IMG/VR virus record: IMGVR_UViG_3300025381_001071
Reading direction: 5' to 3' (one strand)
DNA from: a virus
DNA: 20,289 bases
Shown: piece after piece, positions 6,316-18,254 of the stretch
Position numbering within the stretch: the first letter of the stretch is position 1
Layout of the letters: each line of letters opens with the position of its first letter
Program-made: the position numbers and the translations under genes
Notes under the pieces: model-generated
What the model was told of the DNA's origin: nothing
Databases searched by the model: none
Seen by the model: the letters and a program-made list of their open reading frames with translations, nothing else

Positions 6316-6846
6316 TTAACGCTCCCTGATTTTCATTTTAGCGTAGATGTTTTGTACACCCACAGCCTGGCGGATAGCATCCTGTAAAGCATCGTGTTTG
6401 GCACCCTGTGGCATATCTGGATCATAGCCCAGGTCAAACAAGGTACGAGTATCACGCAACTGCCAGTAGTTCCACGGCAAGGGTTTGCCTAGCTGGCGAT
6501 AGATGTTTTCGATGATCACAAGGTCAAAGGTAGCACCATGACTCCAGAACGCATCACAGCCCCAAGCAAACTTGTGGAACTGGTCCATGGCATCTACTAG
6601 GCTGATGCGATTGTCAGGACTAAACGCTTCTTCCATGATCGCAGGGTCTTGCTTGCTCCACCACTCGATTGTGTTGGGATCAACTTCACGACCTAGTGCA
6701 TCTTGATCATCGATATTGATACGGAAGTAGAGTTTATCACCATAGCCGTTGCCATAGGGATTGAAGTGTACAGCACCCAAACTGAGTACTGTTGCATTTG
6801 GGGAAACTGCCATAGTTTCCATATCAACCATTAAATGTTTTGCCAT
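6316..6846 (-). CDS. DEDDh 3'-5' exonuclease (Rv2179c/DUF5051/DexA-like)
   Basis: HLMVDMET (ExoI), WSHGATFD (ExoII), RDTRT, HDALQDA (ExoIII). Confidence 0.9.
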   Translation of the reverse strand: MAKHLMVDMETMAVSPNATVLSLGAVHFNPYGNGYGDKLYFRINIDDQDALGREVDPNTIEWWSKQDPAIMEEAFSPDNRISLVDAMDQFHKFAWGCDAFWSHGATFDLVIIENIYRQLGKPLPWNYWQLRDTRTLFDLGYDPDMPQGAKHDALQDAIRQAVGVQNIYAKMKIRER

Positions 6847-6881: not shown

Positions 6882-7368
6882 TTACTACATTTGGAAATTG
6901 AGCAATAATTAGTGGCAATATAGCAGGTGCTTGCTCATCTGTTAAATTACTTAGAATACGATTTAAAAATGCAGGCAGTACTTGGAAATTACTAGGATGG
7001 TTGATCTGTTCTTTGGTCCAACCCATGGTCTTAGCACGAGACCGAGGCACTAGGTGATCTAGTTGTGGTTCGTGCCATTCCCAATCTTCTCCACACTTAA
7101 TTTTGTTCTCGCCTTTACCCCAGTCAAATTTGCGATATACGCCAACACCGTCAGTCCATCCGTCTGGTGCTTTATTGTACATCTCTTGTGCTTCTGCATT
7201 AGTCCAGTGGTATTTGCTTTTGTAGTATCCAAAAATTGCCACACGCTTCAAATCTCGAGTCTTACAGAATTCGTTAAAGATACTCATTGTGTAGTAAGTA
7301 CCTTCGTCAAATCCTTTGTAAGGCTCAAGAGTCGAGATGCTTTCGTTTATAGCAACAAAGTTTTTCAT
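6868..7368 (-). CDS. HNH-type nuclease (GmrD/DUF1524-like motif spacing)
   Basis: LDHLVPRS...INHPSNFQVLPAFLNRILSN beta-beta-alpha-Me pattern. TAATG coupling with the upstream gene. Confidence 0.7.
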   Translation of the reverse strand: MKNFVAINESISTLEPYKGFDEGTYYTMSIFNEFCKTRDLKRVAIFGYYKSKYHWTNAEAQEMYNKAPDGWTDGVGVYRKFDWGKGENKIKCGEDWEWHEPQLDHLVPRSRAKTMGWTKEQINHPSNFQVLPAFLNRILSNLTDEQAPAILPLIIAQFPNVVIDKS

Positions 7369-8567
7369 TAGACCAATGCCAATTTGAATTTCTTGTTGCC
7401 ACTAGGCCAAGCAGGTTCTGCCCATTTAATACTAGGAGCATACTTCTTACACACTTGGTAGATACCGTGTGCAATAATCATCTCTTCTGGAACACGACTG
7501 TTTGAGTACGATGCAGAAGTCTGGTCTTTGTAGGCATCCTTAATATTTTTGTGCAACTGTCCACCTGTGTTTTTCTTGGGCCAACGTTCAGCCAATGCTG
7601 TCATAATAGCATGATCCACTACTAGATCAGTTTCTGATAAGTTTTGATATTTCAAAAACTCCATCAGACCCCAACTGTTAGCAGTATGGAACTTACTGGT
7701 TGAAAACAACTGTGCGTTGATTGTAGTAGCACGAGTAAAATAATCTTTACCATACACAATACGATACTTGATCATATTACCGATACTAGTAAGCGTACCT
7801 GCTCGGCTACCTGATTCGACTTTTTCAATAACTTCGATACCGAGATTGCCAAACAACTGACTAAGTTCAAAACTGATTGCGTCTTCTGGCTCGCTAGGGA
7901 AGCCTGCTTCTTGTGCGGCTGTTTCACGCTGAACGCGAATACGATAGCGATCAAACTCGCTGGCTGTGAGACTGTGAATGTTCAGTGCGGCATACTGTGC
8001 CACATCCCAGAATTCTTCATCACTGGTAATGTAGTTAATTGGCACATCTTCAATACCGAGAATAATACAACCTAAAGTTCTATGCTGGGCATCATTAACA
8101 AACAAGAAACCCTTGCTATTCAGTCGCCCAACACCCGGCAATACCAAACCTGGATTGAAGCGGAAAATAATGTCTTCAAAGATATGACGCAGGAAAACAT
8201 CACGTTGTTTTTCGGCATTCTTAACCAGCTTGTCTAGTGGTTGCAAATTGCTAGAATTATAATTAAGAGCCTGTGTGTTTAGTTTATTAGCGGCATCGAA
8301 CAAGCTGTCATACACAGGCAAGTCAATGCCCAACAAAGGATTATCTGTACCCATCAAAACCAGTTTGTTCAGTGCAAGAACTAGAACATCGACCAGAGTA
8401 GGATGTTTGCCCAAACTACGTGTATTCACATACTCTGGAATTCGTTTAAGACGGGATTTTTGTTCTGCAAGTGATAGAGAGGACCACTTAACACGATCAG
8501 CTGGTGGACCAAGAACTTTAAACAAGTCGGCACCAAATGCTGCTACCAATTTTGGATGATAAGCCAT
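7368..8567 (-). CDS. ParB/Sulfiredoxin-fold (DGQHR-like) domain protein, ~399 aa (probable start MAYHPK at 8567)
   Basis: QR...F-N-P...LFVNDAQHRTLG...G...VP resembles the ParB/Srx/DUF262/DndB D-G-Q-H/Q-R motif. The track start at 8642 lies only 2 nt after the -10 and is unlikely. Confidence 0.6.
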   Translation of the reverse strand: MAYHPKLVAAFGADLFKVLGPPADRVKWSSLSLAEQKSRLKRIPEYVNTRSLGKHPTLVDVLVLALNKLVLMGTDNPLLGIDLPVYDSLFDAANKLNTQALNYNSSNLQPLDKLVKNAEKQRDVFLRHIFEDIIFRFNPGLVLPGVGRLNSKGFLFVNDAQHRTLGCIILGIEDVPINYITSDEEFWDVAQYAALNIHSLTASEFDRYRIRVQRETAAQEAGFPSEPEDAISFELSQLFGNLGIEVIEKVESGSRAGTLTSIGNMIKYRIVYGKDYFTRATTINAQLFSTSKFHTANSWGLMEFLKYQNLSETDLVVDHAIMTALAERWPKKNTGGQLHKNIKDAYKDQTSASYSNSRVPEEMIIAHGIYQVCKKYAPSIKWAEPAWPSGNKKFKLALV

Positions 8568-8644
8568 TTCAATTTTCTTTCTGCCCGATTCACGGTGCAA
8601 TAGGTTTATAAAAATGTTGTATGAATAACACACACAACACATAT

Positions 8645-8673
8645 ATTATAACACTAGAACATTGAAATGTCAA
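8645..8673 (-). promoter_or_regulatory. consensus sigma70 promoter TTGACA-N17-TATAAT for the ParB-like/HNH pair
   Basis: Perfect consensus read directly. Confidence 0.85.
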
Positions 8674-8689: not shown

Positions 8690-8929
8690 TTAATACATTT
8701 TTTTGGGTAGCTCGTTTTCTTTTAACTTCTTAAGCCATCGGGCACGGGCCGCACCTTTTTTACGTTTACGCTCAGTGGTTGGTTTGGTGTAGAACATGTT
8801 TTCTTTCAAGATTTCCAACTTGCCAGAATCATCTACTTTCTGTTTGAACTTACGCAGGGCAACTTGTAGGGGTAGTTCTCCTACGATTATTTTAGAACCT
8901 GTAATTTTGTCTTTGTTGTTTCTACTCAT
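8690..8929 (-). CDS. rpsU: 30S ribosomal protein bS21
   Basis: VALRKFKQKV..G.L..LK....YTKPTTERKRKK.AA..R signature. C-terminal LPKKMY resembles betaproteobacterial S21. Confidence 0.93.
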   Translation of the reverse strand: MSRNNKDKITGSKIIVGELPLQVALRKFKQKVDDSGKLEILKENMFYTKPTTERKRKKGAARARWLKKLKENELPKKMY

Positions 8930-9033
8930 TTAAATCTTTTATACCATTATGGCAAATATATTTTACTTATCACTTTTATCAATATATTACAAGATAATAT
9001 AATAAGTAAGTATAACACATGTAAGGATACCCA

Positions 9034-9636
9034 ATGAGTACAGGCAGTGGAAAACCCATGGAAGTCATTTTAAATGCCTTGCCAGAAACCCAAGCCCTTT
9101 TAGCAAGACAAGAGTTTTTAAACGCAGACTACGATAAAATTCAACAAGAACGCCGTGGATATTACGCCAGAGATTTCAAAGATGATACAAGAGCGTGTAT
9201 TCCCGGACCAGATGAGTTATATTTTTCTGAGTTCTATAGATCAAACTATCTTGAAGGCAACTCGGTCATTAGAGATAGTTTTTATTCCTACATCAAACCT
9301 ATCATAGAAACGGCCACAAACAAACAAATCATCAATGTAGAACTAAAGTGCTACATTATGAAAGAAGGTGGACAGTTTCGAGTACACAAAGATGCTTATA
9401 GAGCCGATATTGGATTTATTTGGTATTTGAGTCGAGAATGGAAGTGGGATTGGGGTGGATTACTGCTGTCTATCAACGATGACGCCACTGCTAGTGTGAC
9501 CATGCCCGTATTCAATCAGTTGGTTATCATGGATCACTTGGGAGGACAAGTTCCACATTGTGTCACTCCCGTCACACAGTTTGCTCAAGAACCCCGCATT
9601 ATGCTTGTGGGATTCCTACAGTCTACTGGCTTTTAA
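9034..9636 (+). CDS. 2OG-Fe(II) oxygenase (prolyl-hydroxylase-like)
   Basis: HxD (HKD), YL..EW..DWGGLL, P.FNQLVI, distal H (PHCVTPV) and 2OG-binding R. Confidence 0.85.
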   Translation: MSTGSGKPMEVILNALPETQALLARQEFLNADYDKIQQERRGYYARDFKDDTRACIPGPDELYFSEFYRSNYLEGNSVIRDSFYSYIKPIIETATNKQIINVELKCYIMKEGGQFRVHKDAYRADIGFIWYLSREWKWDWGGLLLSINDDATASVTMPVFNQLVIMDHLGGQVPHCVTPVTQFAQEPRIMLVGFLQSTGF

Positions 9637-10861
9637 CCTGCTCGTTGTCAAATATCATTATGGCTGGACTAGTTCCAGCAATAGTGTCTTTGTTAATAAC
9701 GATTTTAGATAATCCCCTATTGGCCAGATTAATAGCATCAAACTGGTAAGGCAACAGGGTCTTTTCAATAATGTTTTTCAATCCACGAGCATTGGTTTTA
9801 AGTTCTTTGGCTCGTTCAGCAATCTGTGTTAGGGCAGATTCCTCAAACTGTAGTTCAATACCATCCAGTTCAAACATGTATTGATATTGTTTAATCAAAC
9901 TGTTCTTGGGTTCTTTTAGTACACGGACCAAATCTTCAACGCTTAACTCGCTTACATTGGACATTAGGCCAAAACGACCGATAAACTCAGGAATAAATCC
10001 GTATTGAATAATGTCTTTGGTTGTGGTTAAACTGTAATAATCTGTGGCATCGTCTTTAGATTTAATATCACTGTGAAATCCTACACTACGACTATGAAGA
10101 CGTTTTTCAATAAGTTTATCCAAACCTACAAAGGCTCCGCCACAGATAAACAGAATACCTCGAGTATCGAGTTCTTGCATGTCACTGCCAGGATGTTTAC
10201 GTTTTCCATTATATGGAACTCGCATAACACTACCTTCGATCATTTTAAGTAATGCTTGTTGTACGCCTTCCCCGCTGACATCTCGAGTAATGCTTGTACT
10301 TTCGCCTTTACGGGCAATCTTGTCAATTTCGTCAATATAAACAATGCCACGTTGGGCTTTTTCAACATCTCCATCGCTGGCATTAAGCAACCGCAGTAGG
10401 ATACTTTCTACATCATCACCCACATATCCTGCTTCAGTAATGCTAGTAGCATCGCAGATAGCAAATGGTAAATCCAAATACTCGGCAATCTTACGCACCA
10501 ACATGGTTTTACCACAGCCTGTGGGACCTAGTAATAACATATTGGTCTTTTCTAACTGTACGTCTTTGCTAGGATTATTGATACGTTTAAAGTGCTGGCT
10601 AACTGCTACACTTAGACTAATCTTAGCATCATCTTGCCCAATAACATATTCGTCAAGGAAATCTTTAATAGCGGCAGGGTTTAAACGTTTGGTACTGTCT
10701 GCTACCTTCTTAAATTTTTCATCTTCTAGAATATCAACGCATAATGTAATACAGTCATTACATATAGCGGCATGTTCGCCCACAATGAGTTTTTCAACAT
10801 CTTCTTTGCTTTTTCCACAAAAGTCACAGCAATGATTAGTTGTTTGTAGTTTGTTTGTCAC
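9623..10861 (-). CDS. clpX: ATP-dependent Clp protease ATP-binding subunit ClpX
   Basis: C4 zinc finger (CDFC...CNDC), Walker A GPTGCGKT, pore-1 GYVG, Walker B YIDEIDK, pore-2 [12 protein letters not shown] loop, VGF (IGF-type) ClpP-docking loop. GTG start. Confidence 0.97.
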
Positions 10862-11243
10862 TGAAAATACTTTCTAAAAATTGTTCTACAGTATCAACAC
10901 GTCTTGTATTGATGTGAGCATATACTTCGGCCAATGCGCTATTATCTGTTCGATAATAAAATCCAGGTTTGCCTAGTACATGTCCGCTTAACGATTGTGT
11001 AATATAATTTACATAATCAATGTTAATATACTTATATTCGCATCGGTTGGCCGCATACAAAAACCAAGTTGAGTTATTTTCATTATCATAAAAATATAGG
11101 TTAATATTTTCATTTAGGTCGTGTTTACCCAACCAATCACTTACTGCTGTTTGTTCTTCATCAGTTAAATGTGCTAGTAGGATACTAAGATTTCCAGTTT
11201 CATAAAAATCTGGAGGGGTGATTAATGTTATTTTTGTTGACAT
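10836..11243 (-). CDS. hypothetical phage protein (135 aa)
   Basis: Intact ORF coupled to both neighbours. Confidence 0.75.
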   Translation of the reverse strand: MSTKITLITPPDFYETGNLSILLAHLTDEEQTAVSDWLGKHDLNENINLYFYDNENNSTWFLYAANRCEYKYINIDYVNYITQSLSGHVLGKPGFYYRTDNSALAEVYAHINTRRVDTVEQFLESIFSDKQTTNN

Positions 11244-12001
11244 TACTGTCCTTTTTGTAATATAGGGTGCCAGGGCAAGTATTTTTTATAATATTCTATT
11301 TGCAAATCAACATAATGATAATAACGTTTTTTCATATTATCATCAAATGTTTTTTGTGTAATATTTTCAAGAGAAGAAATAACCGTTTCCGGGTCACTTA
11401 TAATATCTGCAAAGTTTATAAAAAAATATCTTTCCCTTATATTGGTAGGTAGTCTTTTATACCAGTTTTGACAAGCATCCGGATCTGTTAGTTTAAAATA
11501 TTCAGGAATACCTTTTTCTAAATATTGATCAATATATTCTGAAGCTTGGTCAGGGGAGATTAAAACACCGTGATCTATAACTTCTATACCAAGCTGATCA
11601 AGATAAAATGCAGGATCCTGCTTCCAAAAATGATTTAGTTCAACAGTCTTATAGTCTGCGGGATCTACTGTAATGACCACTACTTTAAAATTAGGAAAAT
11701 CTGAAATAATATCCTGATACATCGGTATACCTTCACCGGGAAATCCCAAAGATTTATAAGTGTCAGTATTTGAAAAATTAATTTCTTTCCAAGGCGGCCA
11801 TTTTACTGTTCTGCTTGTATGTACATTATCTAAAATATTATCAAACTCATTGTGGTAAGTGGCAAAATTACTGAAAGAAGTATTATGAGATTCGTAGTCT
11901 ATATCAGGAGATAAATCATTTATTAGGTATGTAATCAGCGTGGCAATAAAATGTTTGCTTGCTCCATTTACAGAAGAAACATAGATAAAATTATCAAGCA
12001 T
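11243..12001 (-). CDS. hypothetical protein, possible degenerate P-loop/sulfotransferase-like fold; paralog of 11994..12794
   Basis: DNFI..S..GAS..FI, NHxWK, INFxDI..PE.VI..LE.I and PWHPIL are shared with the neighbour. Confidence 0.6.
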   Translation of the reverse strand: MLDNFIYVSSVNGASKHFIATLITYLINDLSPDIDYESHNTSFSNFATYHNEFDNILDNVHTSRTVKWPPWKEINFSNTDTYKSLGFPGEGIPMYQDIISDFPNFKVVVITVDPADYKTVELNHFWKQDPAFYLDQLGIEVIDHGVLISPDQASEYIDQYLEKGIPEYFKLTDPDACQNWYKRLPTNIRERYFFINFADIISDPETVISSLENITQKTFDDNMKKRYYHYVDLQIEYYKKYLPWHPILQKGQ

Positions 12002-12794
12002 ATTGTTTTAATATAGGATGCCAGGGTATATGTTCTTTATAATGATCCAGCTGAATATTTACATATTGGGCATACGTATCTAAAAGATTTTGGGTAAAAA
12101 CATTTCCACTAATTTCTTCTAAAGTTTCAATGACTAGTTCCGGGTTACCCACAATGTCAGAAAAATTTATTAAAAATACTTTTTCTTTAGCGTTAGGTCG
12201 CAATGTACTATACCACGATCTTACTCTAGAGTCTAAGGTATTAAAGTAATGACCTGGATAATGTCCCTTATCTAGACCAATACTGTCTTTAACAATCTGT
12301 GTTACTTTATCAATACTATATTCTTTCCTCCAGTCAAAGAAACCATTTCGGCTATTAAGATCATCAACTTCTTCTTGATTTAGGTACAGTCTTATGTCTA
12401 ATTTCCATGCATGATTCAAATCAACAAATAATATATCTTCGGGTTTTACTGTAATGTATAACACCTTTCCGTTGGGAAATTCATTTAAAAACTTTGTCAA
12501 AGGCATGTTGATGGCGCCGCCGGCAAATGCCATTATTCGACATGGACTATTGTTTTTAAATGTTATTTTGTTCCAATACTCTACATCACCGGGAACCCCA
12601 AACCAACCTAAATTGGTATGCTCCTCCATAAAACTACAAGCTTCGGTATGATAGTCGGCAGTTGTTTTTCTAGGATCGAAAGGAAAATCTATATTATTTG
12701 CAGAATAGGTTAATATGGTCGATATAAACTTTCCACTGGCACCGCTGTTAGATATAACGGGAATAAAATTATCAGGTTTTCTGTACTCAGACAT
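11994..12794 (-). CDS. hypothetical protein, possible degenerate P-loop/sulfotransferase-like fold
   Basis: N-terminal SNSGASGKFIS loop. C-terminal INFSDIVGNPELVIETL resembles the sulfotransferase YEDL..P....I pattern. Confidence 0.6.
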   Translation of the reverse strand: MSEYRKPDNFIPVISNSGASGKFISTILTYSANNIDFPFDPRKTTADYHTEACSFMEEHTNLGWFGVPGDVEYWNKITFKNNSPCRIMAFAGGAINMPLTKFLNEFPNGKVLYITVKPEDILFVDLNHAWKLDIRLYLNQEEVDDLNSRNGFFDWRKEYSIDKVTQIVKDSIGLDKGHYPGHYFNTLDSRVRSWYSTLRPNAKEKVFLINFSDIVGNPELVIETLEEISGNVFTQNLLDTYAQYVNIQLDHYKEHIPWHPILKQYA

Positions 12795-12881
12795 GCAGAT
12801 GGTGACTCATATATTATATGAGTATTTATCCTGGTATCGGCCAAGAAGAGGGATCAATCTCGTTCGCCACGCATCTATTTA

Positions 12882-13271
12882 TTACCTACGCATGTTTGCC
12901 GCATCAATTGCTTCCTGTTGATTGAACACTGGCTGAAGGCAACTCTTATGAACAATAGTCACACCCAATACTTTAGTACCGGTGTATACTTTGTGAACGG
13001 GGGCAGTTGAGCCGCCCGGGGTTACTCTGCTAGGTAGATCGTTACTAGTGGTACGACCAACAGGAGTAGACAAGTTATATGCCAAAGGTTCGGCGTCCAT
13101 AGCACGGCGACGTTTCTTGTCCTCGGCTTCTACATTCCACTTTTTCTCTAGTTCTTTCCAACTTGCTTCAAGTTCACGAGCCTTACGTGCTTCTTCAGCA
13201 TTACGGAATTTGACTTTACCCTTTTTCTTACCATTAAGACTAAGAGAAGGATGATGTAGATGCATTGTCAT
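12882..13271 (-). CDS. conserved hypothetical protein of T4-like phages (basic; YTGxxxxG...HKS...PVF...MRR C-terminus)
   Basis: AGGA SD and its own promoter. C-terminal motif recalled from large myovirus hypothetical proteins. Confidence 0.75.
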   Translation of the reverse strand: MTMHLHHPSLSLNGKKKGKVKFRNAEEARKARELEASWKELEKKWNVEAEDKKRRRAMDAEPLAYNLSTPVGRTTSNDLPSRVTPGGSTAPVHKVYTGTKVLGVTIVHKSCLQPVFNQQEAIDAANMRR

Positions 13272-13301
13272 TGTATGTCCTAGTGTTTACAAACAGTTAC
13301 T

Positions 13302-13330
13302 ATTATACTATCGTTTAGAATTTTAGTCAA
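13302..13330 (-). promoter_or_regulatory. sigma70 promoter TTGACT-N17-TATAAT
   Basis: Read directly, immediately after the porin terminator. Confidence 0.8.
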
Positions 13331-13331
13331 T

Positions 13332-13355
13332 AAAAAAGGCTACCTAAGTAGCCTT
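13332..13355 (-). terminator. rho-independent terminator of the porin gene
   Basis: AAGGCTAC-TTAG-GTAGCCTT stem-loop followed by a U-tract. Confidence 0.85.
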
Positions 13356-13376
13356 GTTTTGAATCAGTATTACTGA

Positions 13377-14330
13377 TTAGAAGTTGTGTTGAATACCAAC
13401 TGCAACTTCACGAACATCACCAGTAGCGACCTTGAAGTCTTCCTTGATGTAACGTGCTTGCAATGTAGTACGTTTGCTCAAGCTGTAGTTAGCACCTAGT
13501 GCAAAAGCCTTCAAGTCGTTGTTAGCAACGCTCTTGTCGTCTTTCTTACCATAAGTAGCCAAAACGCTCAATGCTTTAACACCTGGAACAACTTGTGTTA
13601 CACCAACAGTTTCGCCGACTGATTTGACATTAGCAACTGTATCTTTACTATACAAAGCAAGAACAGTAGTACCAGTAGGAGCAAATGTGTACTTGCCTGC
13701 AACTTGTGTAGTTGCATTACCAGCATAGTTGTCCAAACGGTTTACAGACAAATTAGCACCGAACTTAGCAACTTCAACGCCATATGCTTGAGTTGCTTTT
13801 GCAGTAGTATTGCTTTCTGCTTGTTCAAAACGTGCAGTAACACCAGCAATTGGAGTAGCAGTCAAGAAAACTGCATTGCTCAATCGTTGGCCTTGTGTAC
13901 TGTGAACAACATTGGTTGCTGACAAGTCAAAGTTACCGAATGTATCGTAGTTATCTAGTGTGCGACCGATAACTTGTTTACCGTGACCTAAATCAACAGA
14001 AAAATAGTCATTGCGTAGACCAACACGACTTTCACGATCACCTAATGCTGTTGGAGTAGCAGTAGTTGTTGAGTGACTTGCAGTGCCTGGATTTTCTGCG
14101 TTAAGATTGGTTTCAACGATAAAAGTTGCTTTCAAACCAGCGCCCAAATCTTCAGATCCTCGGACACCGAAACGGCTGCTATCGTTGTAACCTTGTGTAA
14201 CCGCAGTTGCAGTACCAAGTTTGTAACTATTTACATATTCATTCAACTTGCCATAGACTTCAACATTGTCGCCGGCAGTTGCCAAACCTGCTAGACTGAA
14301 CAAAGCAGCCACTAATAGAGATTTCTTCAT
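13377..14330 (-). CDS. Gram-negative (betaproteobacterial-type) outer-membrane porin
   Basis: Signal peptide MKKSLLVAALFSLAGLATA, VEVYG, SRFGVRGSEDLGAGLKATF, YSLSKRT and terminal GIQHNF. AAGGA SD. Confidence 0.92.
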   Translation of the reverse strand: MKKSLLVAALFSLAGLATAGDNVEVYGKLNEYVNSYKLGTATAVTQGYNDSSRFGVRGSEDLGAGLKATFIVETNLNAENPGTASHSTTTATPTALGDRESRVGLRNDYFSVDLGHGKQVIGRTLDNYDTFGNFDLSATNVVHSTQGQRLSNAVFLTATPIAGVTARFEQAESNTTAKATQAYGVEVAKFGANLSVNRLDNYAGNATTQVAGKYTFAPTGTTVLALYSKDTVANVKSVGETVGVTQVVPGVKALSVLATYGKKDDKSVANNDLKAFALGANYSLSKRTTLQARYIKEDFKVATGDVREVAVGIQHNF

Positions 14331-14387
14331 TTTTTAAATTCCTTAATTAAGTTAAAAATAAACAAGTCATTAAATGACTATGTGTAT

Positions 14388-14417
14388 ATTATATAGCATT
14401 TCTACTAATATAGTCTA
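14388..14417 (-). promoter_or_regulatory. probable porin promoter TAGACT-N18-TATAAT
   Basis: Consensus -10 with a weaker -35. Confidence 0.5.
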
Positions 14418-14478
14418 TAGAAATTGGGCAAAATTTGTTCATTTTAACCCAAATGTAACAGTAGATTAAATACTATAT

Positions 14479-15159
14479 ATGAATTTAACTCGAATAAGAC
14501 AAACTACTACCGATTTACACATTATAACATATTTACCAGCAACTGGCGGAAATTTTATGACAAGATTATTTTCATTGTCAGATAATGTCAAGATGCCATG
14601 GAAACAAGGTAGTTGCGGTTGTTTACCTGTTAATTCTACTTTTGAAGAAAAATGGAAATGGTTAATATTCAAAGAATCCCAAGTTAAGAATTGGGGGCAA
14701 GAAGCACATCTATTGCCATTCGGGGGTAATATATTAAATGATTACGATATCCCCGGGGGAAAAGAAAATAAAAACCTTGTAATATGTAAACATTTTGCTG
14801 GTTGGAAACTAACGTGTAATTCTTCATTTAGGTTTACTGATACTAATATAAATGAACATCACTATTATATTAAGGTGTCAGAAGAAAACTGGCATTTTAT
14901 GAATAGATATATGCATTTGGAAATTAGTCCGCAAGAGAAAGAAGACTATGATTGGGTATTGAGTAATATAGATATTAAACCGATAGATTTAGATTTAATG
15001 TTAACAGGCGATAATGGGTTTTTATCAGAATATAAAAGAGTATGTGCAATCATGAATCTAGGGCCAATACCAGATGATAAGGCCCTAGAGTTTTTTAATA
15101 ACTGGAGATATCTAAGAGTTGATAATCCAGAAATCGATCGTAATATGAATAGTGGTTAA
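14479..15159 (+). CDS. AT-rich hypothetical protein with N-terminal P-loop/sulfotransferase-like YLPATGGNF motif
   Basis: 226-aa ORF on the opposite strand between porin and ahpD. TAAATA lies 6 nt before the ATG. Confidence 0.65.
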   Translation: MNLTRIRQTTTDLHIITYLPATGGNFMTRLFSLSDNVKMPWKQGSCGCLPVNSTFEEKWKWLIFKESQVKNWGQEAHLLPFGGNILNDYDIPGGKENKNLVICKHFAGWKLTCNSSFRFTDTNINEHHYYIKVSEENWHFMNRYMHLEISPQEKEDYDWVLSNIDIKPIDLDLMLTGDNGFLSEYKRVCAIMNLGPIPDDKALEFFNNWRYLRVDNPEIDRNMNSG

Positions 15160-15662
15160 CTATTCAATACTTTAGCCACGCTGTTAATCACTGCGGCAAT
15201 ACGACCAATGTCACGAAGGTTTTCTACAGAGTAGCCTTCCTTCTTCAATGTTTCGTAGTGTGCTTTAACGCAGAACTCACATTTTCCAACAATACTAGCG
15301 GCCAAACTAAATGCTTCAAAATTGCTCTTAGTTGTGCCGCCGTGTGTAGCGATGGCGTTCATACGCAGTTGGGCAGGCAAACCCGTTAAGTTTGCGTCAT
15401 CGGCCATTTCAACATATGGGTACCAACTGTTTGTCATTGCCATAATGCTTGCGGCAGTCATTGCTGACTCAGCAAATACAGGAGCATCTGCTAACAATAC
15501 AGCTAATAACTTACCGTTGCCGGTAGCAGCCAAAGCGGCTACAGCACAGCCCATAGCCACATCCTTGTCCAATGTGCTACGAAGCAATACAGCATCAATG
15601 TTCAAACGAGCATCTTTAGCATAGTCAGGCAATGCGCCTTTTACTGAATCAATGAATGCCAT
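15156..15662 (-). CDS. ahpD: alkyl hydroperoxide reductase AhpD (carboxymuconolactone decarboxylase family)
   Basis: LPDYAKD.RLN, AASIMAM.N.WY, LRMN, FE..SLAAS.VGKCEFCV.AH (CxxC...H). Confidence 0.95.
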   Translation of the reverse strand: MAFIDSVKGALPDYAKDARLNIDAVLLRSTLDKDVAMGCAVAALAATGNGKLLAVLLADAPVFAESAMTAASIMAMTNSWYPYVEMADDANLTGLPAQLRMNAIATHGGTTKSNFEAFSLAASIVGKCEFCVKAHYETLKKEGYSVENLRDIGRIAAVINSVAKVLNS

Positions 15663-15663
15663 A

Positions 15664-16209
15664 TTATGCTCCTAGAGTTGCGCCACCAACGGTACGGTTA
15701 CAAGCACAAAGTTCACCAGTTTGAAGTGCGTCAAGAATACGCAAAGTTTCTTCTGGGCTACGACCTACATCCAAGTTGTTGACGGTAACGTGTTGGATTG
15801 TGTTGTCTGGATCAACAATGAATGTTGCGCGAAGTGCCGCACCTGCTGGACCAAAGAATACACCAAGTTGTTCAGCCAAACTCAACTCACCACGCTGTGT
15901 ATCAGCGAATTGATTGTGTTTGATATTGATCAAGTCTGGGTGGCTCTTTTGCCAAGCAATCTTACAGAACTCATTATCTGTTGAACCTGTCAACAATACA
16001 GCATCGCGGTCTTCGAAGTCTTGATTCAACTTGTCATAGGCCACAATTTCAGTTGGGCATACAAATGTAAAATCCTTGGGATAGAAAGCAATGATCTTCC
16101 ACTTACCTGGGAAACTTGTTTCATCAATGTTGAAGAAAGCATCTTCTGGTTGTCCTGGCTTAACGCCTGTAACTACGAAATGTTCTAGTTTATCGCCGAT
16201 TGTTTTCAT
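15664..16209 (-). CDS. ahpC: peroxiredoxin AhpC (AhpD-coupled type)
   Basis: FYPKDFTFVCPTE peroxidatic motif, RATFIVDP, GR..EE.LR, GELCAC resolving region. AGGAGG SD. Confidence 0.96.
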   Translation of the reverse strand: MKTIGDKLEHFVVTGVKPGQPEDAFFNIDETSFPGKWKIIAFYPKDFTFVCPTEIVAYDKLNQDFEDRDAVLLTGSTDNEFCKIAWQKSHPDLINIKHNQFADTQRGELSLAEQLGVFFGPAGAALRATFIVDPDNTIQHVTVNNLDVGRSPEETLRILDALQTGELCACNRTVGGATLGA

Positions 16210-16265
16210 ATTTCCTCCTGTGTGTATAATGAAAAACTTTAACTCAGTGTAAACACTGATATATT

Positions 16266-16294
16266 ATTGTAATAGTATTTACTACCTAGATCAA
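16266..16294 (-). promoter_or_regulatory. ahpCD promoter TTGATC-N17-TACAAT
   Basis: Read directly. Confidence 0.65.
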
Positions 16295-16302
16295 GCATTT
16301 TC

Positions 16303-16351
16303 ATAGGGTTTTCCTATGAGTGTATCTATGACTGAAATAGGAAAAATTTAT
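16303..16351. promoter_or_regulatory. OxyR-like operator (ATAG-N7-CTAT elements)
   Basis: ATAG-N7-CTAT at 16303-16317 and CTAT-N7-ATAG-N7-TTAT at 16326-16351, directly upstream of the ahpC -35. Confidence 0.55.
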
Positions 16352-16635
16352 TGTTCTTCTTCAGGCGGTAATCCGTTACTGTGTTTATCGTTAGGAGTAT
16401 CAGCATCCTGGAACAATCGCTTTTCCTGTGCGGTTAGTTCTTTGAAAGTTTTTCTAGGATTACCGCATAACATACATTTTGGATTACCGCAGTTCATAGC
16501 ATGATGTTTGGCAAACTTATGTGGTTCTTTTACTGCCATACCGTGTTCTTTGGCAATTTTAGTTTGTTTTTTAACAGCGTTTTCGTCTTTTTGGAGACGT
16601 TTGCTGTGTTTGAATTTATCATCTTCGGTGCTCAT
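16348..16635 (-). CDS. basic hypothetical phage protein with His/Cys cluster (HH..CGNPKCMLCGNP)
   Basis: Intact ORF in the operon, possible zinc site. Confidence 0.75.
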   Translation of the reverse strand: MSTEDDKFKHSKRLQKDENAVKKQTKIAKEHGMAVKEPHKFAKHHAMNCGNPKCMLCGNPRKTFKELTAQEKRLFQDADTPNDKHSNGLPPEEEQ

Positions 16636-16636
16636 A

Positions 16637-16933
16637 TTACATCAAACTCCAAACTTTACCACCAGCATCGCGGTAGTAGTCGTCGTTGGCATTGACTGAT
16701 GTTTCTTGACTATCTACCGGATCAATAACATACCAAGTAGCATCTGGAAGTTTCTGGAAGGCATAGATAGTGCCCACTGTAGCTATTTGATTGGTAGTAA
16801 CGGTAGTTGTCACTGTAGTTTCAATTTCACTACCATCATCGATATCATAAATCACTTCTTGATCCCTCCGAAAAACTGCTACCATCAGCACAAGTATAAA
16901 AAGGAAAAATACCAAAGACCAAATGAACAACAT
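16637..16933 (-). CDS. hypothetical membrane-anchored protein
   Basis: N-terminal hydrophobic helix and Thr-rich linker. Confidence 0.7.
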   Translation of the reverse strand: MLFIWSLVFFLFILVLMVAVFRRDQEVIYDIDDGSEIETTVTTTVTTNQIATVGTIYAFQKLPDATWYVIDPVDSQETSVNANDDYYRDAGGKVWSLM

Positions 16934-16934
16934 A

Positions 16935-17636
16935 TTAAATCACCATTCCAAATAAAGCAATTAACAATACTACCACCAAAAATCCACCCATGGCATAGCC
17001 AAAGACTTCCACTGCTGTAGGTCCAGGTTTCTCGACATAGATAACCTGTGGTTGTTGTGGTTGTGGCTGTACTGGTTGTTGAGCACCGGCATCAGCAGGA
17101 GCAGGTTGCGCTACCATGGGACCGTTTTGGACGGGATTGAACTGTCCGCCGGCATAGGTTCCTACCAAATAACCATTTTGATTAACCACTCGACCATCGG
17201 GATACAGAACAGCATTATTGTAGTACGCACCGGGACCTGTGTACATTACGGTACCATATGGATGCATCATACTGCCAATAATTAGTCCAGTCATCAATCC
17301 GTTGTTATAGTGATAACCATAACCCCAACCACCATAGTAGCCACCGGGGCTAACATAGCGACTTGTATAAGTTCGATTTACTGCGGTAGTGGTTGTGCGA
17401 GTAGTAGTCTGTGCAGGGGCACTAAAACTACCTTTTTGACCAGGAGCGGGCGCGGCGCTAAAACTACCTTTCTGTGGGCTAGGAGATGCGATAGGATGAA
17501 CAGGGCCAGGGGAACTATGTGGCACACTCGATGGAGTACTAAAACTGCCACGACTAGCCCCACCTTGGCCGGGTTTGGCATTAACTGCGCCGCATAGTGC
17601 GATACCAAACATCACTGCTAAAAGAGTCTTTTTCAT
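16935..17636 (-). CDS. exported low-complexity (G/S/P/Y/Q-rich) protein with C-terminal TM anchor (probable start MKKTLL at 17636)
   Basis: Signal peptide, three GSFS repeats, central hydrophobic GLMTGLIIG and C-terminal TM. Confidence 0.75.
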   Translation of the reverse strand: MKKTLLAVMFGIALCGAVNAKPGQGGASRGSFSTPSSVPHSSPGPVHPIASPSPQKGSFSAAPAPGQKGSFSAPAQTTTRTTTTAVNRTYTSRYVSPGGYYGGWGYGYHYNNGLMTGLIIGSMMHPYGTVMYTGPGAYYNNAVLYPDGRVVNQNGYLVGTYAGGQFNPVQNGPMVAQPAPADAGAQQPVQPQPQQPQVIYVEKPGPTAVEVFGYAMGGFLVVVLLIALFGMVI

Positions 17637-17663
17637 AAGAACCTTGTTTGTTAAAGTAAAGTT

Positions 17664-17692
17664 AGTATACACAAAAAGAAAGGGCCCGTCAA
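17664..17692 (-). promoter_or_regulatory. sigma70 promoter TTGACG-N17-TATACT embedded in the tmRNA terminator
   Basis: The -35 hexamer is the terminator loop. TGTG precedes the -10. Confidence 0.65.
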
Positions 17693-17702
17693 GGCCCTTT
17701 CT
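17672..17702 (-). terminator. rho-independent terminator after tmRNA
   Basis: AGAAAGGGCC-TTGACG-GGCCCTTTCT followed by TTTT. Confidence 0.88.
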
Positions 17703-18060
17703 ACTATTTTGGGTAATAAGGTATAGTTACCTCACCTTGGCTCAAGCGGCCATGGAATATTGTGAATCGTTTGCGATTACTTTTTGCGTGTCTTCGATCG
17801 GGTCACCCCAATCCTAACGGCTTCTACATTGCCGGACTGTCCATTTCATTACTCTTGACCCTGTCGAAAACCAGGTCAGGCCCATCATAAACACACTCAA
17901 ATCTGAAAGGTATCGGCTGTGCCGCTATGTGTCTATAACACTACCACTTGGGACTTAAACCCACATGTGTTTATGGTGGACCTGGCGGGAGTCGAACCCG
18001 CGTCCAGAATCCTTTTCTGTCAACTTCATACAGTCTTACTATTGAGATTACTCTCAAATC
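17703..18060 (-). ncRNA. ssrA: circularly permuted (two-piece) tmRNA gene: acceptor piece (~18060-17974, ending CCA), 90-nt intervening segment (17973-17884), coding piece (17883-~17703) with tag (A)ANDSQYSMAA*
   Basis: T-arm GCGGG-TTCGACT-CCCGC followed by CAGGTCC-A-CCA. Downstream GGGCCTG pairs with CAGGTCC, giving the G3:U70 Ala identity pair. D-loop ends TTCGAC. Helix-2 pairings AGGGTC/GATTCT and ACAGTC/GACTGT. Resume context TAATC-GCA-AAC-GAT, tag ORF 17774-17742, post-tag pseudoknot. Outer ends are approximate. Confidence 0.93.
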
Positions 18061-18254
18061 TTACCCCAACTAATCTTCATCCAAATTCTTTCATGAATAT
18101 AATAATCTAATGAAAGAATCAAATGTAGGAAAGTACTAAATCCAGTTGATTCTGAAAGATTGCCTGTATACATATAAGATAACAAAATTGTCAACATCCA
18201 AGCACTAAGTCTATATGTGATACTTCTTGCTAATGTTCTTTTATGCGATTCCAT
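18054..18254 (-). CDS. DUF2061-like small membrane protein
   Basis: ESHKRTLARSITYR...YYIHERIW.KI.WG signature. Confidence 0.8.
   Translation of the reverse strand: MESHKRTLARSITYRLSAWMLTILLSYMYTGNLSESTGFSTFLHLILSLDYYIHERIWMKISWGKI

Follow-up and report, generated by a model that had tools for sequence, protein, structure and literature searches.

The viral DNA analyzed here is a 20,289-nt stretch of IMG/VR record IMGVR_UViG_3300025381_001071, referred to below as the window. Within about 9.4 kb of its minus strand, it encodes a two-piece transfer-messenger RNA (tmRNA, the ssrA product), a full-length ClpX unfoldase, and a homologue of ribosomal protein bS21 (rpsU). This neighborhood is real and well conserved among related phages, and a tag-and-degrade function for it is plausible. 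The three appear to be genuine auxiliary genes, separately transcribed in a plastic early region of the phage genome; the most likely reading, which we put at about 55%, is that the tmRNA and ClpX add to the trans-translation and ClpXP capacity of the infected cell. An earlier note on this DNA, made from its letters alone, had reported the three genes together with intact ssrA-recognition loops and a VGF docking loop in ClpX; its description of the genes was correct in every detail according to ARAGORN, Rfam, NCBIfam, and Pfam, and alignment with Escherichia coli ClpX confirmed the loops.

The source of the window is a T4-like freshwater jumbo phage with a genome of about 320–355 kb. The IMG/VR contig is 99 kb in length and the window makes up its last 20 kb: window positions 50–20289 correspond to contig positions 99019–78780, and window bases 1–49 lie beyond the contig end. 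CheckV estimated the completeness of the contig at 28%, which corresponds to a genome of about 350 kb. Scanning IMG/VR with ClpX revealed at least 232 viral contigs, from which 80 loci (62–86% identity) were fetched; all counts per 80 loci given below refer to this set, ascertained via ClpX. Two of the fetched records were complete genomes: G041, of 322 kb, carries direct terminal repeats, and G027 has a length of 355 kb. A large terminase and a gp23 capsid protein of the T4 type (about 270 bits) were encoded in both.

The permuted tmRNA gene of the betaproteobacterial type (17651–18066, −) was the only RNA gene that ARAGORN found, whether in the window or across the 99-kb contig as a whole; no tRNA genes were detected. 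Full-length matches were obtained with two Rfam models: RF04321 (tmRNA_permuted; 105 bits against a cut-off of 47, model positions 1–213) and RF01850 (betaproteobacterial two-piece tmRNA; 95.3 bits against a cut-off of 84, model positions 1–331). Both halves could be read directly from the sequence: the 3′ acceptor/T-arm half, with CAGGTCC-A-CCA ending at 17974 (−), lies upstream of the 5′ half with the coding piece, which runs from GGGCCTG at 17883 (−). Together they form an acceptor stem of 7 bp with the G3:U70 pair, followed by the discriminator and an encoded CCA. The tag frame (GCA..TGA, 17742–17774, −), recognized both by ARAGORN and by reading, starts with an alanine resume codon and encodes ANDSQYSMAA followed by a stop. 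The tmRNA gene is closed by a strong intrinsic terminator hairpin (17677–17702, −), in which 6 of the 11 pairs are G-C and which precedes a T run.

The relatives provided 30 distinct tags, some of them 13 residues long, with the consensus AND-x-x-[YFW]-x-[LMIV]-AA. Endings included ...SMAA, ...MVA, and, in a 13-residue tag (ANDAYFGEDRLAA), ...GEDRLAA. The middle positions varied freely, and 27 of the 30 tags ended in [LMIV]-Ala-Ala. The G3:U70 pair was kept in 38 of 39 distinct phage tmRNAs, and the acceptor stems covaried between the two pieces (GGGCCUG/CAGGUCC versus GGGGAUG/CAUCUCC). The retained pair, the compensatory stem changes, and the constant tag end beside a variable middle indicate that the tmRNA, i.e., the tag writer, is under selection in the phage relatives. 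Tags sampled from Burkholderiales, the presumed host order, were far more uniform and of the ANDERFALAA type; the sample comprised 151 genomes, the unpublished G079 entering only the tally, as a genome without permuted tmRNA.

Several peculiarities of these RNAs were observed in addition. In many of the relatives' tmRNAs, the canonical T-loop UUCGAxU was replaced by a non-canonical one of 7 nt, GGCAGUG (or GGCAGUU, UGCGAAU), as in L015:6014–6384, L018:3288–3673, and L071:2509–2915; such copies have no equivalent of T54-Psi55-C56 but retain the T-stem, G3:U70, and the tag. The T-loop of the window tmRNA is canonical (TTCGACT). Record G046 carries tandem tmRNA-like genes about 0.5 kb apart (L058:3359–3733 and L058:4243–4447) with different tags, ANAANDEVFALAA or ANDEVFALAA for one and ANDELFAMVA for the other, and a second, partial copy of the coding piece was also present in L041 and L053. 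In the window, a called 245-aa open reading frame (ORF) with a GTG start overlaps the tmRNA and is probably too long. The gene right after the tmRNA terminator (16935–17636, −) encodes a protein with a signal-peptide-like start, MKKTLLAVMFG...; its product had no family match, and homologues were found in only 3 of the 80 loci.

The clpX gene (9623–10861, −) encodes a full-length protein of 412 aa, assigned by NCBIfam, Pfam, and alignment. With the ClpX equivalog models NF003745/TIGR00382, it scored 538 and 504 bits, the respective cut-offs being 359 and 371, and the N-terminal C4 zinc domain was recognized by zf-C4_ClpX (PF06689, 50 bits). Compared with E. coli ClpX (PDB 8e91), the Walker A and B motifs, pore-1 GYVG, the entire pore-2 loop, and RKH were retained, and the ClpP-docking loop was VGF where E. 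coli has IGF (I268–F270). In E. coli ClpX, the Ala-Ala-COO⁻ terminus of the ssrA tag is bound by six residues, Y153, V154, T199, V202, R228, and H230 (PMC7652416); the window ClpX has equivalents of all six. Among 45 phage ClpX sequences, the equivalents of Y153, V154, V202, and R228 were invariant, as were the four zinc cysteines and, in the docking loop, G-F; the T199 position was occupied by T in 40 and by S in 5, and the H230 position by H in 41. Taken with the conserved tag end, such an intact reader is what one would expect of a tag that serves as a ClpX degron. The phage ClpX is predicted to perform ATP-dependent unfolding and, with ClpP, degradation of tagged substrates. The phage line does encode both writer and reader, as the earlier note had proposed.

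The best bacterial ClpX of any phylum was only about 50% identical to the phage protein. In a tree with 80 bacterial sequences (the top 80 matches, rooted at an arbitrary bacterial tip), all phage copies formed one clade with a support of 0.93. This divergence and the single phage clade argue that clpX is an old phage gene, neither recently acquired from a host nor derived from host contamination. A bacterial donor was also sought, and no group stood out, all of them being at about 50% identity. A weak hint of coupling between tmRNA and ClpX came from the RKH loop: its histidine was substituted in 3 of 10 ClpX proteins from loci without a detected tmRNA versus 1 of 35 from loci with it (Fisher p = 0.03, uncorrected for phylogeny and with truncated contigs among the negatives). 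Covariation between tag and ClpX could not be assessed at most of the contact residues because these residues are invariant.

The earlier note had pointed out that neither smpB nor clpP lies in the window and had concluded that partners from the host or from other loci would be needed. Neither gene was found in the whole 99-kb contig either. For clpP this absence is uninformative, since the contig ends 9.6 kb downstream of ClpX and the position of ClpP in the relatives lies beyond that end. True ClpP proteins were encoded in seven relatives (both complete genomes and five large fragments), always 26–100 kb downstream of ClpX; they are 198–221 aa in length, score 211–264 bits with PF00574, and contain the Ser (CSMG), His (IHQP), and Asp motifs. 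The window phage thus probably possesses its own ClpXP. As for SmpB (PF01668), neither the contig nor any of the five largest relatives, which include the two complete genomes, gave a match, and SspB was likewise absent from these five. The phage tmRNA would depend on host SmpB, as well as on host alanyl-tRNA synthetase (AlaRS) and EF-Tu, given the lack of SmpB in the five largest relatives. The expectation of outside partners was therefore borne out, with one of them, ClpP, encoded elsewhere in the relatives' own genomes.

Window proteins were mapped onto the 80 loci in order to evaluate the conservation of the neighborhood. ARAGORN recognized a tmRNA in 32 of these loci; a profile built from the 32 raised the number to 57, always on the ClpX strand and no more than 10 kb upstream, and another six, 4.6–18 kb upstream, emerged when whole records were searched with a covariance model. 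A same-strand tmRNA is thus located upstream of ClpX, 3.5–18 kb away, in at least 63 of the 80 loci, and several of the remaining contigs are cut off upstream. In 76 of the 80 loci, bS21 directly follows ClpX, its start coinciding with or overlapping the ClpX stop codon. The grouping of tmRNA, ClpX, and bS21 is not due to chance, since the same order occurs in most of the related loci; within the ClpX-bearing clade, the genes do not assort independently. Ascertainment via the tmRNA, by a 26-nt exact block, gave at least 115 viral stretches, and 25 larger records (45–250 kb) were searched whole. ClpX was present in only three of them: one member of the clade (76% identity) and two proteins of 47–48% identity. 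In both of the latter, deep lineages, the order tmRNA → ClpX → bS21 was kept.

The nearest annotated counterpart of the pair was found in Pseudomonas phage vB_PaeM_PA5oct (MK797984.1), in which ClpX (EST35_0255), 43% identical to the window protein, is followed by an overlapping S21 gene (EST35_0256), and a true ClpP is encoded in the same genome (180.4 kb). PA5oct differs in that Hsp20 and ClpS are encoded beside ClpX-S21 (EST35_0255–0260) and ClpP lies as near as 10 kb; no tmRNA in it scored above the cut-off. In the clade described here, ClpP is 26–100 kb off and a two-piece tmRNA lies upstream; neither ClpS nor Hsp20 is encoded in the window. The ClpX-rpsU pair is thus an old, already annotated feature of jumbo phages that exists without a phage tmRNA.

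Several facts weigh against a functional union of the three genes. Each has its own promoter-like and terminator-like sites in the window, and both the distance between tmRNA and ClpX and the cargo between them vary. No tmRNA was detected in the whole ClpX-bS21 records G024 (113 kb), G040 (149 kb), and G029 (66 kb). Conversely, records G208 and G228 contain tmRNA, AhpC, AhpD, the 129-aa and 135-aa proteins described below, bS21, and the exonuclease (Exo), in exactly the gene order of the window minus ClpX. In at least nine other tmRNA records (70–175 kb), neither ClpX nor bS21 was found within 20–100 kb downstream. These tmRNA-only and ClpX-only records imply that neither partner needs the other, and co-occurrence within one clade largely reflects shared ancestry. 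Moreover, the presence of ClpX-S21, ClpS, and ClpP in PA5oct without a tmRNA implies a role of ClpX-bS21 independent of phage tmRNA. The arrangement appears to be ancient and common, yet each of its parts can be lost, which fits capacity-adding genes working with host counterparts rather than an obligate module. The word "module" used in the earlier note therefore claims too much tightness for three transcription units with variable spacing and cargo, from which tmRNA or ClpX has been lost in some lineages; of the synteny that it proposed to examine, the joint occurrence in the clade and in two deep lineages stands beside the occurrence of each part alone. Its placement of bS21 in the rescue system was not supported: nothing links bS21 to rescue, and its tie is an old pairing with clpX, found in PA5oct without a tmRNA.

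The components themselves are familiar. Like the E. coli SsrA/SmpB-ClpX-ClpP-SspB system, the phage genes feature G3:U70, an encoded CCA, an Ala-Ala tag end, the tag-contact residues, and the docking loop; unlike in bacterial trans-translation and ClpXP, they are virus-encoded, the tmRNA is two-piece, SmpB and SspB are missing, and clpX lies outside a clpP-clpX operon. The RNA shares with the betaproteobacterial two-piece tmRNA (RF01850; the lineage of Sharkady and Williams) a full-length match above the gathering score, the permuted order, and AND...AA tags. It differs in that phage copies score 35–177 bits versus 169–296 bits for bacterial ones, many of them have the unusual T-loop GGCAGUG, and the phage tags show much more variety. 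Both bS21 and tmRNAs, two-piece examples among them, have already been documented in phages, and annotated jumbo phages carry ClpX, Clp proteases, S21, and sometimes tmRNA. Marine T4-like phages (Melnitz, pelagimyophages) are lytic myophages with a complete two-piece ssrA and rpsU; their tmRNA is, however, of the alphaproteobacterial type and was not reported together with ClpX. The huge phages of Al-Shayeb (2020) list tmRNA and S21 among their translation genes, and some of them carry SmpB, which is absent here. A full-text literature search retrieved no account or test of a conserved phage tmRNA-ClpX(P) linkage, an absence that is not proof. Since cultured jumbo phages have already yielded these gene families as well as the ClpX-bS21 pair, the neighborhood is not a new kind of system.

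The rpsU homologue (8690–8929, −), identified by profiles, encodes a bS21 of 79 aa with a short basic N-terminal extension (PF01165, 42 bits against a cut-off of 27; TIGR00030, 39.2 bits against 28.95); the protein is predicted to be incorporated into the host 30S subunit. Between clpX and rpsU, a 2-oxoglutarate (2OG)-Fe(II) oxygenase is encoded on the opposite strand (9034–9636, +; PF13640), an insertion seen only in the window phage, with a homologue in 1 of the 80 loci. Directly downstream of rpsU, there is a sigma-70 promoter that matches the consensus perfectly (8645–8673, −; 12/12; TTGACA, 17-nt spacer, TG-TATAAT), ahead of a 424-aa ORF (7368–8642). The usual downstream neighbor of clpX-rpsU, an Rv2179c-like/DEDD 3′-5′ exonuclease (6316–6846, −; PF16473, 133.8 bits; phrog_255), was present in 73 of the 80 loci.

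The start of clpX is overlapped by a 135-aa gene (10836–11243, −), found in 79 of the 80 loci. The model of its product has a flavodoxin-like, nucleoside-deoxyribosyltransferase-like fold (predicted local distance difference test, pLDDT, 89; best PDB match 4mcj, template-modeling (TM) score 0.66). Prediction of its complex with ClpX gave a score of 0.00, which counts neither for nor against binding. We considered this protein as a ClpX-specific adaptor and rejected the idea, since it also adjoins bS21 in the lineage without ClpX. About 2 kb upstream of ClpX, a basic 129-aa protein (phrog_27048; 12882–13271, −) is encoded in 76 of the 80 loci, preceded in the window by a sigma-70-like promoter (11/12, 13330–13302). 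It contains an invariant C-terminal ...K-S-N-x-x-P-x-F...M-R-R, and its gene also occurs in the ClpX-less sister lineage. It gave no PDB match, no useful Atlas match, and no fold or family match; the possibility that it is a hidden SmpB or an adaptor received no support, the model being poor (pLDDT 71, predicted TM score 0.29).

Host-like cargo (13377–16209) separates the tmRNA from the clpX block; it was found in only 9–18 of the 80 loci, at varying positions. According to profile matches, it includes a porin (13377–14330, −), an AhpD-like carboxymuconolactone decarboxylase (CMD) protein (15156–15662, −), and an AhpC peroxiredoxin (15664–16209, −). The AhpC/AhpD-like pairs just downstream of the tmRNA (window, 15156–16209; L298:1257–2319; L300:8929–10389; L301:989–3336) are 80–87% identical (69% for the AhpD-like protein of L301) between phages whose ClpX proteins are 47–75% identical, which suggests that this peroxiredoxin cassette either spreads horizontally among the phages or is much more strongly constrained. 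The named matches of the porin were from Burkholderiales with only about 30% identity, and better matches (43–48%) were metagenome proteins. Together with the tmRNA type and the AND...AA tags, these named relatives point to a host that is probably a betaproteobacterium, at no finer resolution. Finer assignment via the porin was dropped, as four sampled Burkholderiales genomes with permuted tmRNA gave only weak porin matches; the host is "betaproteobacterium-like" at best.

According to the reading that we favor, host AlaRS would charge the two-piece tmRNA, and host SmpB and EF-Tu would bring it to ribosomes stalled on broken or decaying mRNAs. It would release these ribosomes and append a tag with an Ala-Ala end. 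Phage ClpX, docked through VGF on the phage ClpP encoded elsewhere, or on host ClpP, would read the C-terminus of the tag and feed the tagged fragments to proteolysis. During phage infection, host clpX and clpP transcripts fall and host tmRNA persists (PMC13478754); tmRNA and ClpX might raise trans-translation and ClpXP capacity at the time when host mRNAs, including those of clpX and clpP, decay. We infer that the phage tag is read by the phage ClpX and that this benefits the phage. The bS21 protein would join host 30S subunits and act on initiation, separately from rescue; its connection with clpX is an ancient gene pairing and no known rescue step.

The most serious alternative is that the genes reside together without being functionally related. 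In this case, ClpX, with its bS21 and 135-aa neighbors, would have another main job, as in PA5oct-type phages, i.e., the remodeling or degradation of specific host or phage proteins or the takeover of ribosomes, and the tmRNA would be an independent rescue gene. The pair in PA5oct, the wide occurrence of tmRNA without ClpX and of ClpX without tmRNA, the separate transcription units, and the variable spacing and cargo are all compatible with this explanation. It accounts less well for the joint conservation of the six ssrA-reading residues and the Ala-Ala tag end, for an order persisting down to 47–48% ClpX identity, and for the enrichment of RKH histidine substitutions where no tmRNA was detected, a comparison subject to the phylogenetic and truncation limits given above. 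We regard it as possible, though clearly the less probable explanation. A further objection, namely that tmRNA, clpX, and rpsU are host DNA from a prophage flank, an att-site remnant, or a chimeric contig, could draw on the host-like porin and AhpC/AhpD genes nearby, on the GC content of the tmRNA region (0.48, above that of its neighbors), and on the common use of tmRNA genes as integration sites. It is extremely improbable, because the same block lies inside both complete genomes with T4-type capsid and terminase, ClpX groups with phage copies at about 50% identity to any bacterial protein, the tmRNA is complete and not a 3′ fragment, and clpX is not beside clpP, tig, or lon, unlike in bacteria.

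A stronger version of the tag-and-degrade idea proposes a private channel: the phage tags would be preferred by phage ClpXP, or tuned against host SspB and proteases, as the phage's own disposal route or as a counter to defense nucleases cutting mRNA, tRNA, or tmRNA. The variety of the 30 tags compared with those sampled from Burkholderiales, the old and distinct ClpX lineage, and the ClpP of the relatives speak for it. Against this, the tag-contacting residues are those of E. coli, whatever the tag, and many phages have the tmRNA without ClpX. Host ClpX should also read the phage tags, given their generic N-D-x-x-aromatic and Ala-Ala features; we consider a private channel distinctly unlikely. 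Hardly better are the prospects of a virus-owned quality-control circuit in which the phage tmRNA would write phage-specific degrons and phage ClpXP would read them preferentially, which we deem unlikely. If it were true, ribosomes and amino acids would keep cycling during the destruction of host mRNA or RNA cutting by defense nucleases, and bS21 would be co-selected with ClpX, the same operon reprogramming ribosomes.

With regard to why phages carry a tmRNA, a natural experiment is provided by this clade, with its hundreds of related contigs, at least 30 tag variants with a conserved Ala-Ala end, an old ClpX lineage whose tag-reading pore is intact, natural losses of tmRNA or ClpX, a phage ClpP, and no SmpB. 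The hypothesis that these phages reinforce the trans-translation and ClpXP pathway of their hosts during takeover may thus be tested by biochemistry and by the comparison of natural knock-outs.

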